From the NCBI GenBank assembly GCA_038046645.1, contig JBBSVU010000016.1, positions 652-64,651 on the forward strand: a stretch of DNA of 64,000 nt, read 5' to 3'. Shown piece by piece: positions 20,978 through 51,732 of this stretch. The stretch's first letter is position 1. Each line of letters begins with the position of its first letter. The stretch comes from an archaeon. GTDB lineage: Archaea; Iainarchaeota; Iainarchaeia; Iainarchaeales; 0-14-0-20-34-12. The notes beneath the pieces are model-generated. The model was not told the DNA's origin, searched no databases, and was given only the letters and a program-made list of their open reading frames with translations. The position numbers and the translations under genes were made by a program.

Positions 20978-21205
20978 TTAAATTAATTTTCCAAATTCTT
21001 CTCTTGTTATTTGCAGGTCTTTTTTGATTATTTTGAGCAATAATCCGGGCCCAATTGGTTCATTTCCGTGAATTGGGATTGTGGTTTTTCTTCCATCAGG
21101 ATGCGCAAATCTATGATGGCTTCCATCAATTCGTGTTTGTTCAAAACCAAGCTCTTTCAGGATTTTAATTAACTTACCTGCTTTTATTGCTTTTAATTTG
21201 CTCAC
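20978..21205 (-). CDS. hicA: HicA-family mRNA-interferase toxin
   Basis: 'LIKILKELGFEQTRIDGSHHRFAHPDGRKTTIPIHGNEPIGPGLLLKIIK'. The start codon is GTG (21203-21205). Confidence 0.8.
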   Translation of the reverse strand: MSKLKAIKAGKLIKILKELGFEQTRIDGSHHRFAHPDGRKTTIPIHGNEPIGPGLLLKIIKKDLQITREEFGKLI

Positions 21206-21328
21206 TCATAACGTCTGGCTTGCGGAAGCCATTGCCTTCAGGCAATGGTATCGTATTTTTTCTTGAAACATTAACAGTATTGTTCCGCAAGCCCACGCCT
21301 TTAGGCGTGGGTTCCCAGACGTTATGAC
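21203..21328 (+). repeat. Structured palindromic element E1 (126 nt)
   Basis: 13-bp outer stem 21206-21218/21315-21327. 9-bp inner stem 21219-21227/21283-21291. 8-bp tetraloop hairpins at 21229-21248 and 21292-21311. GC-rich relative to flanks. Confidence 0.65.
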
Positions 21329-40420: not shown

Positions 40421-40541
40421 CACTCACAACGTTTGGCTTGCAACGCCCATGTATTTATCTATAAATAAAGTGATATTTACAAATTTAATACTGTGATTTG
40501 CAAGCCTATGCCTAGAGGCATAGGTTCCCAAACGTTGTGAC
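40421..40541 (+). repeat. Structured palindromic element E2 (121 nt)
   Basis: 13-bp outer stem 40424-40436/40528-40540. 7-bp inner stem 40437-40443/40498-40504. 8-bp tetraloop hairpin 40505-40524. Same 'cac...ttc-stem-c' frame as E1. Confidence 0.65.
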
Positions 40542-40565: not shown

Positions 40566-41624
40566 TTGGCACAAAAAAAGAAACCTGAAAAAGTTGCACA
40601 TAAGAAAATTGACACGCAAATAAAGACATTGAGGAAAGGCCTTGAGAAAGAAGTGTCTTTTGCTAAAAAAGTCAGCAAGGCAACAAAAGAGCATGATGAG
40701 GAGCTTGAGGTATTGAAAAACGAGCTTGAAAAATTGAAAGCCAAGAAAAAGCGAAGTTATCTTTCTGATTATAACAAGTTTATGCGCTCCCAGATAAAAT
40801 CAGGCAAGACATTTAAGCAAGCTGTTGCTTTATGGAAGAAAAAGAAGAAAGATGATGAAAGGAAATCAAAAGGTTCAAAAAGAACAGCTTATAATATTTT
40901 CATTTCTTCCCAGCTTAAGCAGGGAAAAACAATGAAGCAGGCGATTGCAGCATGGAATGATTTCAAGAGTGGAAAAGTAAAGAAAAGGATTGTTTACAAG
41001 AGAATTTTATCAAAACCAAAGGTGGTATACAGAAACAAGGTAGTATATCGTAATAGAAATAAGCTTGTTTACAGAAACAAAATAGTGCCAAAAATAGTTT
41101 ATAGGAACAGAGTTGTAAAAACCGATGTTCCAAAAGTAATCCGCCGTAAGAAAACTATAAAACCGGTTGTTCCAAAAGTAGTTCATCGAAAAAGGATAAT
41201 TAAACCAGTGGAAAAACCAGAACCAAAACATGTTTCAAGGATTAGGGTTGTGAGAAGAAATGTCTTCCCTACCGAAGAATTGGAAAGGGTTTTTCTGAAG
41301 TACAAGCCGGAAACGCACATAGTTGAAAAGGAAGTGTTCCCAGCTGAAAAAATAAAAGAAGTGCTTGATTCAGTAATGCACTCAAAGCCTGAAACAGTTG
41401 TGCATTATGCAGATGATGTTTCAGATGAAGAAACCGCTTTAAGGATGCTTGAGATATATCTTAAAGAAATAGCTTGGTCAAACCATAAAGATAAGCTGGA
41501 TGTTGACCAAATTATAAACACATATTTCTATGCGCTTTCAAGGATAAAAAGAAAGGATATAGAAATGCATAAAATTTTAGAAGCTCTGAATAAGGAAAGG
41601 ATTAGAAAGGTTGAGGGTGAATGA
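40566..41624 (+). CDS. Lysine-rich repeat protein (possible nucleic-acid-binding)
   Basis: TTG start 7 nt after 'GGGGGA'. Duplicated '(S/T)(D/A)YN.F..SQ.K.GKT.KQA.A.W' motif. '(V/I)VYRN(K/R)' occurs five times, and 'VPKV..RK..IKPV' twice. Confidence 0.6.
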   Translation: MAQKKKPEKVAHKKIDTQIKTLRKGLEKEVSFAKKVSKATKEHDEELEVLKNELEKLKAKKKRSYLSDYNKFMRSQIKSGKTFKQAVALWKKKKKDDERKSKGSKRTAYNIFISSQLKQGKTMKQAIAAWNDFKSGKVKKRIVYKRILSKPKVVYRNKVVYRNRNKLVYRNKIVPKIVYRNRVVKTDVPKVIRRKKTIKPVVPKVVHRKRIIKPVEKPEPKHVSRIRVVRRNVFPTEELERVFLKYKPETHIVEKEVFPAEKIKEVLDSVMHSKPETVVHYADDVSDEETALRMLEIYLKEIAWSNHKDKLDVDQIINTYFYALSRIKRKDIEMHKILEALNKERIRKVEGE

Positions 41625-46964: not shown

Positions 46965-47963
46965 TTACAACACCTCCATTTCTTGTATTATTGAATTTAG
47001 CATTTCATTTGTTTTTGATTTTCCGCCAAGGTCTGGCGTAAGGCTTTTTCTGCCAACAATCACGCTTTCAACAGCAAGCCTAACCTTATTTGCCCCTTCT
47101 TTTTCCCCAAGGAAATCAAGCATCAGGGCTGCAGACAAAATTGCCCCGCACGGATTTGCAATGCCTTTTCCTGCAATATCCGGAGCAGAGCCATGTACGG
47201 GCTCAAATAATCCAATTTTTTCACCAATGTTTGCAGAAGGGCATAATCCAATGCTTCCGGCAATTCCAGCAACCAAGTCAGACAATATGTCACCATACAG
47301 GTTTGGCGCAAGTATTGTCCTGTATTTTGCAGGATTTACCACTAATTTCATCGCAAGCGCATCAACTATTTCAGAATCAAATTCCTTCCCCAATTTTTTC
47401 AGGGTTTCTGATGCAACACTCAGAAATAAAACATCACTAGGCTTTACGACATTTGCCTTGTGCGTTATTGTTATTTTTCCATTTGCAAACCTTGCCGCTG
47501 CATTCGCAATCCTTTCTGTAGCCTTTTTTGAGATTATCCTCTGGTTAATTGCAATTCCCAATTTTTCATCCATTTCCCCAATCCCGGAATATAAGCATTC
47601 GGTGTTTTCCCTCACAATAAGGATGTCCACATTTTCATCCCCATATCTTCCCAATCCCTTATAAGTCCTTGCAGGCCTTATGTTTGCAAACAAATCAAGG
47701 TTCTGCCTTAATGAAAGTATTGCACTCTTGGCTTTCATGTCTTTTGAAGGGGTGGTGACAGCCCCGAATAATATTGCGTCTGATTTTTTTGCCATTTCGA
47801 TTGTTTCTTCGGGAACCGGAACACCAGTTTTTTCATGGCATGCAAACCCGGCATATGCTTCTTCATATTTTGCATTAAAATTCAGGGCATTTAATACTTT
47901 GATTGCCGCTTCAGTTACTTCTGGGCCAATGCCATCTCCCTTGATTACTAAAATTTTTTTCAT
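46965..47963 (-). CDS. Homoisocitrate (isocitrate/isopropylmalate-family) dehydrogenase
   Basis: 'ILVIKGDGIGPEV', 'NLYGDILSD', and 'GSAPDIAGKGIANP'. Operon context favours homoisocitrate as substrate. Confidence 0.8.
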   Translation of the reverse strand: MKKILVIKGDGIGPEVTEAAIKVLNALNFNAKYEEAYAGFACHEKTGVPVPEETIEMAKKSDAILFGAVTTPSKDMKAKSAILSLRQNLDLFANIRPARTYKGLGRYGDENVDILIVRENTECLYSGIGEMDEKLGIAINQRIISKKATERIANAAARFANGKITITHKANVVKPSDVLFLSVASETLKKLGKEFDSEIVDALAMKLVVNPAKYRTILAPNLYGDILSDLVAGIAGSIGLCPSANIGEKIGLFEPVHGSAPDIAGKGIANPCGAILSAALMLDFLGEKEGANKVRLAVESVIVGRKSLTPDLGGKSKTNEMLNSIIQEMEVL

Positions 47964-48052
47964 AAGAATACTCCTTCTATTCCCTTATTATTTTTTATGA
48001 CCGAAATCCGACATAATAAAACATTTTTGTCTGATATAAAACAAAACCAAAT

Positions 48053-48193
48053 CACTGACGCCCCATGGGTGCGCGGAAGCCGCACCCCTTGGGGTGCGAA
48101 GGATCGCACCCATTTCATTCCTTTCTGTATTTGGCTTCCGCCTGAAGCCCACTCTACTAAAGACGCCATGGGCTTCAGCCTATGGAGCGTCAC
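48053..48193 (+). repeat. Structured element E3 (141 nt), divergent relative of E1/E2
   Basis: Outer stem 48056-48066/48182-48192. Twin hairpins share the identical stem gggtgcg/cgcaccc (48067-48087 and 48092-48111). gcggaagcc (48073-48081) pairs with ggcttccgc (48133-48141). 10-bp hairpin 48142-48178. Confidence 0.55.
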
Positions 48194-48684
48194 AATAAGC
48201 CCTCCAATGATTTTTTCCTGTTCAAATATGGAATAATTCCGCCAGCTTTGATTATTTTCTGCATGTTCTTTGATGTTTTCATTATCCCTGCTTTTTTGTT
48301 TTTGCCCTTATTATTTAAAATCCCATTTTTTTCATCAAAGCCAGCTTCATCCCCATCCTCAAACTCAGCTGAATTTTGAATAAAATATGCCGGAAGCCCT
48401 ATGTTGATTGCATTTCTGTAAAAGATCCTTCCAAATGATTCTGCAAACACTGCTTTTATTCCCGAGGCTTTTATTGCCAATGCAGCACTCTCCCTGCTTG
48501 AGCCGCAGCCAAAATTTTTTCCAGCAACAATGAAATCGCCTGAAGAAACCTTTGCTGAAAATTCAGGCCTGTATTCTGCAAAGCATATTTCCCCCAATGC
48601 CTTTCCATCAACAGTAAGGTTCATCCTTCCAGGAGTTATTAAGTCAGTATTTATATTTTCACCAAATTTCCATATCCTTGCCAT
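48190..48684 (-). CDS. hacB: Homoaconitase/isopropylmalate isomerase small subunit
   Basis: 'GENINTDLI' and '[11 protein letters not shown]'. Confidence 0.8.
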
Positions 48685-48708: not shown

Positions 48709-49944
48709 TTAACAAAGCTCCCCTTCAATTGCGCTCAATGCAGCAGTTATTGGCGATCCCAAATAAATCTCAGAATTTGGGGATCCCATCCTTCCGCAGA
48801 AATTCCTGTTTTGTGTAGATAAACAAACTTCTTTGTCCCCCAAAACGCCAGAGTGCCTTCCCAAGCAAGGGCCGCAGCCAGCATTGCATACAATTGCCCC
48901 GGCATTGAGGAAAATATCCATAAGTCCTTCACCCATTGCTTTCTGATATTCCTGAACTGTTGAAGGAACAACAATCAATCGTGCATTTTTGTGCACACTT
49001 TTTCCCTTCAATATTTTTGCAGCCAATTCCAAATCCTCCAACCTTCCATTAGTGCATGTGCCTATTACAATTTGATCCAATTTTATCCCCTTAGCTTCTG
49101 AAACAGCCTTAACATTTTTAGGTTCATGCGGGCAGGCAACAAGCCTTTCCAATTCATTTAAGTTTATTTCAAATAAAGATTCATATTTTGCATTTTCATC
49201 TGCTTTCATCTCCCCAACATTTTTTCCTTTTTCTTCAAAGAACTTCTTTGTTATGCTATCCGAAGGGAATAACCCGATTTTGGCACCGCATTCAACGCTC
49301 ATGTTTGCAATTGTTATCCTGTCTGAAATTGCCATGTCAGCAACAGCGTTTCCTGAATATTCTACTGATTTATACGCAGCGCCATTTGCCCCTAATATCC
49401 TGATTATTTCAAGCGCAATATCCTTAGAAACAATATCTTTTCCTACTTTTCCATTCATTTCTGCCTTAATTGTTTCAGGAACCATGAACCAGTTTTTCCC
49501 AGTTGCCCAAGATACCGCAATGTCTGTTGAACCCATTCCAATTCCCAGGGAAGAAACAGCACCAAATGTGCAGGTGTGGGAATCTGCCCCGGCAATTAAA
49601 GTATTTGGCAAAGCAATGCCTTCATCTATCAGCAAATGGTGGCAAATGCCCTTCCCATAGAAAATGTCCAATATTGCATGTTTCTCTGCAAATCCCATTA
49701 TTTCTTTCTGCATGTTTGCCGCCTGCACGCTTGCTGCAGGGACAACATGGTCAAAAACAAAAACAACTTTTTCCGCCCTGATTTTAAATCCCTTTAATTC
49801 ATTGAATGATTTTATTGCAAGTGATGTAGTAGCGTCATGGGACATTATTTTGTCAACGTTTGCAATTACTGTGTCGCCAGCAAAAGCCATCCTGCCTGAT
49901 TTTTCTGAGAATATTTTTTCAACAATGGTTTGCCCATTATCCAT
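48709..49944 (-). CDS. hacA: Homoaconitase/isopropylmalate isomerase large subunit
   Basis: 'DKIMSHDATT', 'GADSHTCT', and 'GTCTNGR...NAGCGPCLG'. Confidence 0.85.
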   Translation of the reverse strand: MDNGQTIVEKIFSEKSGRMAFAGDTVIANVDKIMSHDATTSLAIKSFNELKGFKIRAEKVVFVFDHVVPAASVQAANMQKEIMGFAEKHAILDIFYGKGICHHLLIDEGIALPNTLIAGADSHTCTFGAVSSLGIGMGSTDIAVSWATGKNWFMVPETIKAEMNGKVGKDIVSKDIALEIIRILGANGAAYKSVEYSGNAVADMAISDRITIANMSVECGAKIGLFPSDSITKKFFEEKGKNVGEMKADENAKYESLFEINLNELERLVACPHEPKNVKAVSEAKGIKLDQIVIGTCTNGRLEDLELAAKILKGKSVHKNARLIVVPSTVQEYQKAMGEGLMDIFLNAGAIVCNAGCGPCLGRHSGVLGDKEVCLSTQNRNFCGRMGSPNSEIYLGSPITAALSAIEGELC

Positions 49945-51325
49945 TTAAAATCACCATTGTGTTTGTTTTCTGCACATTTTCCATGCTTCTTATTTTATCC
50001 ACAAGCAGGTTCAATTTCCTTACAGAATCGGTTTTTGCATGCAGGCATAAATCGTATTCTCCAGCTATTTCTAAGCAGTTTGTTATCTCAGGGTGCTTTG
50101 CAAATCCATTTTTCAAATCATTGATATAGCCGTCATGGTTTGCAGTTACAAATACCAATGCCTGTGCGTTCCTCGTATTCTCGCGTGATATTCCCAAAAC
50201 ATTCTCAATTATTTTTATTACATCAAACTCTGTGCAGAATTTCCTGTTCCTATTTTTTATTTGTGATATTATTTCCTTTATCTGCGCATCATTTGCTTTA
50301 TGCCCTAGCTTTGAAGTAAAATGCTTCACTGCAGCAGTCCCTGCAAATTTGTCCACGAGTATTGCCCTTTCCCTCCCAAATTCTTCAGGCCTTAGGAATT
50401 CATAAGTAAGTGGATTTTTCAATACTGCCGAAGTATGTACGCCTGCCTTGTGTGAAAATACATTTTTCCCAACAATCGGCTTGTGGTTCGCATTGAATAT
50501 TCCAGAATATCTTTCAACCATTGCGCTTAATTCAGGAAGCATTTCTATCTTCCAGCCATTTTTCACATTATAGATTTTTTTTAGGGAAACAGCCAATTCA
50601 TCCAATGTAGTAATTCCCGCCCTTTCCCCCAGCCCATTTACCGTAACATCAATCAAGGTTATTCCGGCTTCATATGCGGCAATTGCATTTGCGGTTGCTA
50701 ACCCCAAATCATTATGGCAATGGATATGCAAAGGAAGTTTTGTTGATTTTACCAGCCCTGAAACAAGTTCTGATGTTTTTCTTGGGGTTAAATTTCCTAC
50801 AGTGTCTGCAATGCTCCCTCTTGTTGCACCAGCAGCCTTTGCAGTGTTATATACTTTTGTTAAAAAATTAATATCAGTTCTGCTTGCATCTTCCGCAGTA
50901 AACCTTATCTTCAGCCCATAATTTGAGGCATATTCAATGACTTCCGTAATTTTTTCAAGAGCTTTTGCCCTTGGCATGTTGAATTTGTATTTCAGGCTTA
51001 TATCGGATGTGCCCCAAAAAAGGCCAATCCATTCTGTATTCATCTGTGCAACAAGGTCAATATTTTCCTTTGTTGCTAGGGAATGGCAAAGCAGCGGTGT
51101 TTTCAATCCAAGATTTGATACCTCTTTAATTGAGTTTTTTATGTCTTCGGAAACGCCAGGATTTCCTACCTCGATTATGTCAACACCAAATTTAGATAAT
51201 GCAGTGGCAATTTTTATCCTTTCATCGCTGTTGAATGAGACGCCTGCTGTTTGTTCCCCTTCCCTTAGCGTGCTGTCCAATATTTCAACCATAAAACCAC
51301 TTGCCAAATAGTGGCCCTCTACCAC
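49937..51325 (-). CDS. Homocitrate synthase (LeuA/NifV family) with C-terminal RAM-like domain
   Basis: 'ILDSTLREGEQTAGV' and 'HCHNDLGLATANA'. C-terminal ~78 aa 'ALVFVTAN...HPEITNCLEIAGEYDLCLHAKTDSVRKLNLLVDKI..MENVQKTNTMVIL' match the Lrp/AsnC ligand-domain pattern. Confidence 0.85.
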   Translation of the reverse strand: MVEGHYLASGFMVEILDSTLREGEQTAGVSFNSDERIKIATALSKFGVDIIEVGNPGVSEDIKNSIKEVSNLGLKTPLLCHSLATKENIDLVAQMNTEWIGLFWGTSDISLKYKFNMPRAKALEKITEVIEYASNYGLKIRFTAEDASRTDINFLTKVYNTAKAAGATRGSIADTVGNLTPRKTSELVSGLVKSTKLPLHIHCHNDLGLATANAIAAYEAGITLIDVTVNGLGERAGITTLDELAVSLKKIYNVKNGWKIEMLPELSAMVERYSGIFNANHKPIVGKNVFSHKAGVHTSAVLKNPLTYEFLRPEEFGRERAILVDKFAGTAAVKHFTSKLGHKANDAQIKEIISQIKNRNRKFCTEFDVIKIIENVLGISRENTRNAQALVFVTANHDGYINDLKNGFAKHPEITNCLEIAGEYDLCLHAKTDSVRKLNLLVDKIRSMENVQKTNTMVILNG

Positions 51326-51732
51326 TTTTTGAGGACCATAATAGTGTCTGTTGCCTTTATCTCTTTTTTTGCCCTTAATTCATCAATAAATGAGTTCATT
51401 TCATCGATTGCCTGGAATGAGCAAATTAATACGGCATCGAATTCACCCGAAGTTTCAAATAGCTCATTAATCTCAGATAATTGTTTTAATCTGGGATAAA
51501 ACTCAGTTGCATTTATTTGTGGTTCAACCTTTATGCTTACCAAGCATCTGATTTTATTATCATCGCGCAGGACTGCAGTATAGCCACGAATGTATTCCTT
51601 TTCAAGGTTCTTTATCCTGTATCTCACAGCAGATTCTGACAAGCCAAGTCCTTTAGCTATTTCAGTATTTGTTATTCTTGCATTCTTGGTCAAAAGCCCT
51701 ATTATTTTGCGATTTAGTTCATCCATAATCAT
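51319..51732 (-). CDS. Lrp/AsnC-family transcriptional regulator
   Basis: 'LNRKIIGLLTKNARITNTEIAKGLGLSESAVRYRIKNLEKE' plus a RAM domain. Overlaps the homocitrate synthase start by 7 nt. Confidence 0.8.
   Translation of the reverse strand: MIMDELNRKIIGLLTKNARITNTEIAKGLGLSESAVRYRIKNLEKEYIRGYTAVLRDDNKIRCLVSIKVEPQINATEFYPRLKQLSEINELFETSGEFDAVLICSFQAIDEMNSFIDELRAKKEIKATDTIMVLKKW

Follow-up and report, generated by a model that had tools for sequence, protein, structure and literature searches.

The window analysed here, a 64,000-nucleotide stretch of an archaeal contig, carries on its minus strand a lysine operon in which an Lrp/AsnC regulator gene is followed by hcs, hacA, hacB, hicdh and lysWXYZJK. 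All junctions of this operon are tight but one, the 226-nt gap between hacB and hicdh, and this sole large gap holds a GC-rich insert, E3, of 141 bases including the CAC at its 5′ side; the element proper measures 138 nt. Both the identity of the genes and the placement of E3 had been proposed in an earlier, sequence-only reading, and both are confirmed, the former by NCBIfam and Pfam. E3 is very probably one copy of a 138-nt, gene-less mobile element that derives from insertion sequences (ISs) of the IS200/IS605 type and resembles the palindrome-associated transposable elements (PATEs), with an extra 14-bp terminal inverted repeat. The sequence-only reading had instead seen in it a lone divergent relative of two other repeats of the window, E1 and E2, and a terminator/antiterminator-like set of alternatives that could act between the two halves of the operon. 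The host assembly (G000) comprises 1.17 Mb in 25 contigs, with 36% GC, and is 89% complete.

The insert and its repeat family

E3 has the sequence features first ascribed to it, namely the CAC, an outer stem, a box GCGGAAGCC with its distant complement GGCTTCCGC, twin stems and a 3′ hairpin (Table 1). The outer stem pairs TGACGCCCCATGGG with CCTATGGAGCGTCA over 14 bp (12 Watson-Crick pairs, one G-T pair and one mismatch). The twin stems run in the order GGGTGCG (48067-73), CGCACCC (48081-87), GGGTGCG (48092-98) and CGCACCC (48105-11), and the 9-mer of the box occurs three times in the window against 0.19 occurrences expected. The hairpin formed by CTGAAGCCC (48142-50) and GGGCTTCAG (48170-78) overlaps the right-end hairpin, so that the two are alternative folds. 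No other stretch of the window reaches 62% GC or more over 60 nt. On the mRNA strand the insert folds at -73.3 kcal/mol (z -4.58 against shuffles), and the plus strand gives z -6.38. The linker at 48112-48132 contains a T7 run in most other copies of the family and none in E3, and E3 has no T-run on the mRNA strand.

The stop codon of hacB (TGA, 48190-48192, minus strand) falls within the terminal GTGA of E3 and hence in its outer stem, as had been read before; it is supplied by the end of the element. Removal of 48056-48193 in silico yields ..GGC TTA TTG TGA, in which the hacB stop is recreated. The insertion probably took place at a TCAC that overlapped, on the other strand, with the stop of hacB; HacB would be unaltered, since ..TTG TGA is formed anew by the end of E3 itself.

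BLAST and an independent nhmmer profile, both run over the whole 1.17-Mb genome, recovered nine full-length copies of 142-146 bp that are 75-100% identical. E3 is the single copy within the window, which explains why it was taken for a lone divergent relative of E1 and E2. Four of the copies are identical to each other, indicating recent amplification. Derivatives are also present: a copy with a nested insertion (C20:11435-11646), a right-end fragment (C14:9387-9430) and a 38-bp solo hairpin (C6:36222-36259). The units, 138-146 nt, are too short for a transposase gene and overlap long open reading frames (ORFs) only at ORF ends. They adjoin unrelated genes, lying downstream of genes, between convergent genes, between divergent starts or between co-directional genes, and their orientation relative to transcription is mixed, the C8 copy being sense and E3 antisense.

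Two side observations concern individual copies. In C20:11435-11646 and in G001:C28 (L004/L033; G001 is a sister species), an AT-rich palindromic element of ~80 nt, GCACAGTGTGATAT...ATATCACACTGTG, is nested in E3-family copies, where it sits between GCGG and AAGC of the left module. Just upstream of the copy at C5:41115, at C5 ~40850-41060 (L003), the sequence resembles a tRNA gene with a long intron rich in repeats; ARAGORN in default mode made no tRNA call there.

The kinship of E3 with E1 and E2 stands as far as the plan is concerned: the three share an xxAC 5′ flank, an outer stem, the GCGGAAGC-plus-hairpin module and a short-tailed 3′ hairpin. What did not stand is the placement of E3 in their family, since it belongs to one of its own with the nine copies described above. 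The pattern of E1 and E2 is xxAC/TCAyAACGT...ACGTTrTGAC/ (slashes mark element boundaries here and below), and their parts follow one another as in E3, with the xxAC flank, the GCGGAAGC-hairpin, an AAGC-hairpin and a terminal TGAC. In related genomes, IS200 elements with tnpA have right-end hairpins that match the 3′ hairpin of E1 and E2, CCCACGCC-ttta-GGCGTGGG.

Boundaries and IS200/IS605-type ends

The aligned copies have sharp ends. Each lies directly 3′ of (T)CAC, starts with TGACGCTCCATGGG, finishes with CCCATGGAGCGTCAC and terminates in TCAC, giving the pattern TCAC/TGACGC..GCGTCAC/ in one orientation relative to the word. The 5′ flank word is TCAC in 13 of the 14 copies read and GCAC in the remaining one, while the chance frequency of TCAC is ~0.003; bases farther upstream vary. 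An identical boundary rule is found in the copies of G001, in those of a genome from another family (G086) and in metagenome contigs. An exact empty-site test is offered by the copy at C6:87999-88136, which interrupts a 52-nt mini-derivative of a resident IS: cutting TGACGC..GCGTCAC out of it restores the consensus left end CTTAACyGTGTGArCGAG. Three insertion sites of G000 are unoccupied in G001, with two comparisons falling in unalignable variable spacers; the comparison of G001:C28 with G000:C15 likewise falls in such a spacer, and the site of the solo hairpin can be aligned to G001 but shows an extra 5-nt indel. Copies in or beside IS605-type left ends number three of ~14 (C6:87999, G001:C57 and C16:98109), a weak preference.

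The flanks also bear on whether a target duplication is made. Copy C18 has unequal words, GCAC on the left and TCAC on the right, and the sister families E1 and E2 have a variable left xxAC with a constant right TGAC. A variable left word beside a constant right one argues against target duplication, and C18 together with the E1/E2 flanks favours insertion without it.

The resident IS of ~1.3 kb has TnpB as its sole gene (domains OrfB_IS605, Cas12f1-like TNB and HTH_OrfB_IS605), and its right end reads GGAAGC-CACAGCC-ttta-GGCTGTG-GAGGATGTCAC/. The last 33-40 nt of the E3 family follow the same plan and sequence, AGAMGC-CAYRGGC-ttya-GCCYRTG-GAGCKTCAC/, so that GAAGC, a 7-bp hairpin, a TTYA loop and GAG..TCAC are shared. 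Local alignments of the right ends score 30-51 against a shuffle mean of ~16 (standard deviation ~3), with 31 of 35 positions matching in the best copy, and the nhmmer profile of the E3 family matches TnpB-IS right ends genome-wide, with both modules. The E3 right end also matches five tnpA-bearing IS200 elements of relatives (L054, L055, L068, L069 and L078). Of 196 genomes of the order, 54 have IS200 elements with an intact tnpA, and several of these elements share the E3-type right end; those at L069 and L078 end in GTCAC. The region of the "variable" left hairpin is a second module of the right-end type (GGAAGC, hairpin, GAGGAGCGCAC); it is set in by 25 nt from the left end, and the stem GGGTGCGC with GCGCACCC surrounds it. 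A left-end architecture like that of E3 is seen in one tnpA-bearing element, L078, the likeness being in arrangement only; no sequence-level parent of the left end was found, the right end alone matching transposase-bearing elements. That both ends of E3 share their origin with those of the resident TnpB IS was rejected: the left end of that IS, TTAAC/CGTGTGAGCGGGAAATC.., differs, and the right end alone is shared.

The TnpB-only IS is present in ~10 or more full or partial copies (for example C14:31935-33214, C25:9282-10632 and C16:98278-99289, and at many contig ends), and most contig ends of the assembly break within it. At C6:88137-88190 lies its 52-nt terminal-only mini-derivative, in which the start of the left end is fused to the right-end hairpin.

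Among nine distinct family sequences, the stems change in a coordinated way. Pairs altered on both sides amount to 3/14 in the outer stem, 5/7 in the left hairpin, 2/9 in the hairpin of CTGAAGCCC and GGGCTTCAG and 3/12 in the right-end hairpin, and to 10/38 and 9/27 overall in two pairing analyses. Paired cells make up 97.5-98.5%, against 25-49% when the partners are slid, and none of the shuffles scored as high for covariation. Across the family, the left terminus, an internal copy and the right terminus change in concert, and the left and right subterminal hairpins, with TTYA loops, are kept as structures. The pairing of GCGGAAGC with GCTTCCGC hardly varies at all (7 of 8 pairs are constant and the eighth varies on one side only) and is therefore uninformative. 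Concerted changes of this kind are to be expected where movement depends on hairpins in single-stranded DNA or on repeated binding sites for a protein; covariation of the stems alone is no indication of RNA function.

Table 1. Positions in the window of E3 and its parts, the sister repeats and the genes of the lysine operon.
Feature	Positions	Strand	Basis
TCAC, insertion word (target / transposon-adjacent motif)	48052-48055	plus	5′ flanks of family copies
CAC	48053-48055	plus	direct reading
Element proper TGACGC...GCGTCAC, 138 nt; active (top) strand is the window plus strand	48056-48193	plus	nine-copy alignment, nhmmer
Left terminal inverted repeat TGACGCCCCATGGG, inverted copy of the right-end tail	48056-48069	plus	direct reading, covariation
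Left-end module: outer stem GGGTGCG(C) with CGCACCC around GGAAGC, variable hairpin, AAGGAT	48067-48111	plus	alignment with IS200/IS605 right-end modules
Box GCGGAAGCC	48073-48081	plus	complementary to GGCTTCCGC
Variable hairpin CGCACCC-cttg-GGGTGCG	48081-48098	plus	5/7 pairs covary across copies
AT-rich linker	48112-48132	plus	family alignment
GGCTTCCGC	48133-48141	plus	complementary to GCGGAAGCC
Hairpin CTGAAGCCC with GGGCTTCAG	48142-48178	plus	2/9 pairs compensatory
Right-end module AGACGC, CATGGGC-ttca-GCCTATG, GAGCGTCAC; ends at the TCAC cleavage motif	48161-48193	plus	homology to IS right ends
Right terminal inverted repeat CCTATGGAGCGTCA	48179-48192	plus	direct reading, covariation
Empty-site junction if the unit is removed: ..AAATCAC joined to AATAAGCC		plus	
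E1	21205-21325		sister-family copy
E2	40421-40541		sister-family copy
Lrp/AsnC regulator	51319-51732	minus	NCBIfam/Pfam
hcs (homocitrate synthase), with C-terminal RAM (AsnC_trans_reg) domain	49937-51325	minus	NCBIfam/Pfam
hacA	48709-49944	minus	NCBIfam/Pfam
hacB (homoaconitase small subunit)	48190-48684	minus	NCBIfam TIGR02087, 4.3e-52
Native AT-rich spacer upstream of hicdh, 88 nt	47964-48051	minus	unique in genome
hicdh (homoisocitrate dehydrogenase), first gene downstream of E3	46965-47963	minus	NCBIfam TIGR02088 / NF040626, ~1e-112
lysW, X, Y, Z, J, K	down to 41905	minus	NCBIfam/Pfam

Operon context and competing explanations

Taken as an IS200/IS605 derivative, E3 would have moved as single-stranded DNA by the "peel-and-paste" route. 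At each end, a TnpA of the Y1 (HUH) type acting in trans would recognise one of the two subterminal hairpins and cleave behind TCAC, and E3 would have landed after a TCAC whose complement GTGA held the hacB stop. Its stems would be transposition signals rather than a lysine sensor, and in the operon mRNA it would be a passenger that transcription can presumably read through, because there is no T-run in this orientation. Several observations weigh against this account. TCAC on both sides is formally also the result of a 4-bp target duplication at a fixed site, and the insertion at the lysine locus is present in 5/5 assemblies, with no presence/absence polymorphism there. No Y1 TnpA (PF01797) is found in the 89%-complete assembly; G001 holds only a tnpA fragment, which has no E3-like ends, and the multi-copy IS200 of the genome G003 has ends that differ from those of E3. 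Neither a survey of 30 tnpA loci from the order, including BLAST of E3 against these loci, nor a search with E3 DNA against 196 genomes of the order revealed a transposase-bearing element with an E3-type left end. Finally, E3 has a 14-bp terminal inverted repeat of perfect type, TGACGCTCCATGGG with CCCATGGAGCGTCA, while classical IS200/IS605 elements and PATEs have no terminal inverted repeat (PMC3119063).

The surroundings of E3 differ from those in relatives. Comparison with orthologous operons, proposed in the sequence-only reading, shows hacB and hicdh abutting in 5/5 related hacA-hacB-hicdh loci, with gaps of ~25 nt or less and no E3. A locus search for orthologous operons among genome contigs gave only an unrelated, isocitrate-dehydrogenase-like match from Limisphaerales, and, with hacB as marker, the operon has no counterpart in the same-genus genome G001 or the same-family genome G002. 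By the same marker, present in only 7 of 40 related genomes searched, the LysW-type operon is patchily distributed. E3 and the 88-nt spacer next to it recur in four further assemblies, which come from three or more sequencing runs; runs in which the locus was assembled include ERR3858128, ERR3858129 and SRR32696698, and the metagenome contig carrying the lysine-locus copy comes from a Hainich (Hain-H43) sample. Because it is present in all assemblies seen, the insertion is fixed in the sampled population. Without E3 the gap would still measure 88 nt, far above the gaps of at most 25 nt in relatives. This spacer (47964-48051) contains T-runs (T4), TATA-like words and a GGAG ahead of the hicdh ATG, and may hold a terminator or promoter internal to the operon. 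At the operon head, the gene of a 137-residue Lrp/AsnC (LysM-like) regulator overlaps the start of hcs, and residues 393-461 of homocitrate synthase form a C-terminal RAM domain of the Lrp/AsnC ligand-binding type; the two are plausible protein-level lysine sensors for the operon.

Among explanations that keep E3 mobile or tied to the resident IS, a conventional miniature inverted-repeat transposable element is very unlikely. A DDE transposase would bind the 14-bp inverted repeats and TCAC would be a site-specific 4-bp duplication, which suits both the near-perfect repeats, covarying with an internal third copy, and the presence of TCAC on either side. Such a duplication should not leave the unequal tetranucleotides of copy C18, nor a variable left word with a constant right TGAC in the sister families. 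Moreover, the target is not a palindrome and keeps a single orientation with respect to the element, and the IS200/IS605 right ends with which the E3 right end shares homology finish in TCAC without duplication. No longer element bearing the E3-type inverted repeats was found in the genome. Slightly less credence still is due to an omega-RNA cassette for the resident TnpB, in which a right-end transcript would join the scaffold to a guide against the empty site, antisense to the 3′ end of hacB. In the TnpB IS it is the right end that forms the 3′ end of the omega-RNA, and the last ~40 nt of E3 show homology to this end; PATEs often encode omega-RNAs (PMC10055086). Yet the terminal hairpin alone is shared, the upstream scaffold of the TnpB IS having no counterpart in E3, and that IS is flanked by TTAAC-like words rather than TCAC, so the nuclease would need a different adjacent motif.

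The regulatory readings start from the alternative fold. As the sequence-only reading had recognised, E3 can adopt two mutually exclusive folds, and on the mRNA strand these are nearly equal in energy (-27.9 kcal/mol for the twin hairpins, -29.0 for the nested fold). What finds no support is the lysine-tuned device built on them, a lysine-responsive cis-regulatory RNA whose terminator/antiterminator or riboswitch-like switch would set the ratio of hcs-hacAB to hicdh-lysWXYZJK; of all the explanations considered, it has the slightest chance of being right. In its favour, besides the two folds, are the very stable overall structure, the position in the operon's only large gap and the fixation of the insertion in five assemblies. 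Against it, the element lies at eight other unrelated loci in both orientations and is missing from related operons. The twin-hairpin alternative exists only in E3 and its Hainich allele, all other copies having the single nested fold, because the freely varying left hairpin happens here to repeat the sequence of the enclosing stem. The two single-base differences between E3 and the Hainich allele both weaken pairing instead of preserving it, which looks like neutral decay rather than maintenance. Transcription in archaea terminates at T-runs, which are missing from the mRNA strand of the element. Rfam returned no match at gathering thresholds and, at E-values up to 10, only HIV-1 SL4 and Clostridiales-2, both attributable to chance. 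Readings of the termini as C/D-box, K-turn or hammerhead motifs were dropped by eye, the motifs being incomplete. The E3 stems are homologous to IS200/IS605 transposition hairpins, and lysine control would rest more plausibly on the Lrp/AsnC regulator at the operon head and the RAM domain of homocitrate synthase than on E3. A passive effect of E3 on mRNA stability or on the coupling of the operon halves is possible. The corresponding explanation, an exapted passenger of mobile origin whose stable RNA now shields the hcs-hacAB mRNA from 3′ decay or uncouples translation of hicdh, with the spacer as internal promoter, is unlikely, though clearly less so than a lysine switch. It agrees with the mRNA-strand fold of -73 kcal/mol, with a junction of 226 nt against at most 25 nt in relatives, with fixation in all assemblies, with an orientation that avoids a sense-strand T-run and with the TATA-like words and GGAG of the spacer; the stem-weakening changes gathering in the E3 copy speak against it, and selection cannot be demonstrated from one locus. 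An equally small chance attaches to a joint proposal, in which E3-type elements would be "fold-back" IS200/IS605 derivatives, with the left terminus an inverted right-end tail and the target word identical to the terminal word, and in which the lysine-operon copy may have taken on a role as an RNA structure between cistrons, uncoupling the operon halves or stabilising them.

Known systems and significance

PATEs originate in IS605-type ends, can lose their core down to ~52 bp and are mobilised by TnpA in trans; they are gene-less, have near-terminal palindromes and ends resembling those of TnpB or TnpA elements, insert after a short word and spread with little or no intact tnpA (PMC3119063; PMC10055086). 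E3 has in common with the PATEs of Haloquadratum walsbyi and other hosts the lack of protein-coding capacity, subterminal hairpins, a fixed insertion word of 4-5 nt and a conserved terminal oligonucleotide. Further shared traits are ends homologous to resident IS605-type (TnpB) elements, terminal-only minis (38-52 bp) in the same genome and apparent spread despite a missing or decayed tnpA. In contrast to PATEs, which by definition lack a terminal inverted repeat, E3 has one of 14 bp (PMC3119063). It also differs in that the word flanking it on the left, TCAC, is also the word in which it ends, in that only its right end matches a transposase-bearing element found, and in its host, a DPANN-type archaeon. 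E3 is accordingly filed as an IS200/IS605-derived non-autonomous variant, neither a textbook PATE, because of the 14-bp terminal inverted repeat, nor an RNA regulator. With IS608 and ISDra2 of the IS200/IS605 family it shares strand-specific insertion 3′ of a tetranucleotide (TTAC in IS608, TCAC for E3) and hairpins set in from the ends, by ~25 nt on the left and by 8-10 nt on the right, the stem sequence being free and the structure kept. Unlike these elements, it carries neither tnpA nor tnpB, and it has two hairpins with different stem sequences and mutually complementary termini.

The SMR-A repeats of Haloquadratum (HqIRS42/43/55) can be likened to E3 by description: they measure ~110-140 bp, have prominent terminal inverted repeats and no matching transposase, show no evident target duplication and in some copies lie inside IS605-type or PATE ends (PMC3119063). 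E3 differs from them by a recognisable IS605-type right end, SMR-A having been reported as unrelated to any transposon, and their movement was described as enigmatic (PMC3119063). If the fold-back class is real, it would supply a concrete route, Y1 TnpA acting on single-strand hairpins, for duplication-free, inverted-repeat repeats of the SMR type. Repetitive extragenic palindromic (REP) sequences and bacterial interspersed mosaic elements (BIMEs), such as those of malE-malF, are likewise intercistronic GC-rich palindromes of mobile origin; REPs, unlike E3, are GTAG-tagged units of 20-40 nt moved by RAYT. REP and BIME elements are co-transcribed and can stabilise upstream mRNA. The lysine riboswitch (L-box) and amino-acid attenuators resemble E3 as structured RNAs with alternative folds in a lysine transcript. 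E3 has no match to the L-box in sequence or structure, is intercistronic rather than in a leader, has other copies unlinked to lysine genes and is absent from related operons.

E3 is ordinary selfish DNA in a noteworthy position. The value of the finding is chiefly corrective: what looked like a switch within an operon for amino-acid synthesis, a striking structure with covarying stems, proves to be selfish DNA and should not be annotated as a riboswitch or attenuator, and compensatory changes in stems can reflect single-stranded DNA transposition signals instead of RNA function. It also adds, from a DPANN-type groundwater archaeon, an unannotated family that combines an IS605-type right end with terminal inverted repeats and has apparently spread in a genome with many TnpB-only elements, no TnpA gene being found in the 89%-complete assembly. 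For the lysine operon itself, E3 amounts to a natural experiment, in which a 138-nt hairpin insert, set precisely at a stop codon, is tolerated in a tightly coupled junction and leaves the protein unchanged.

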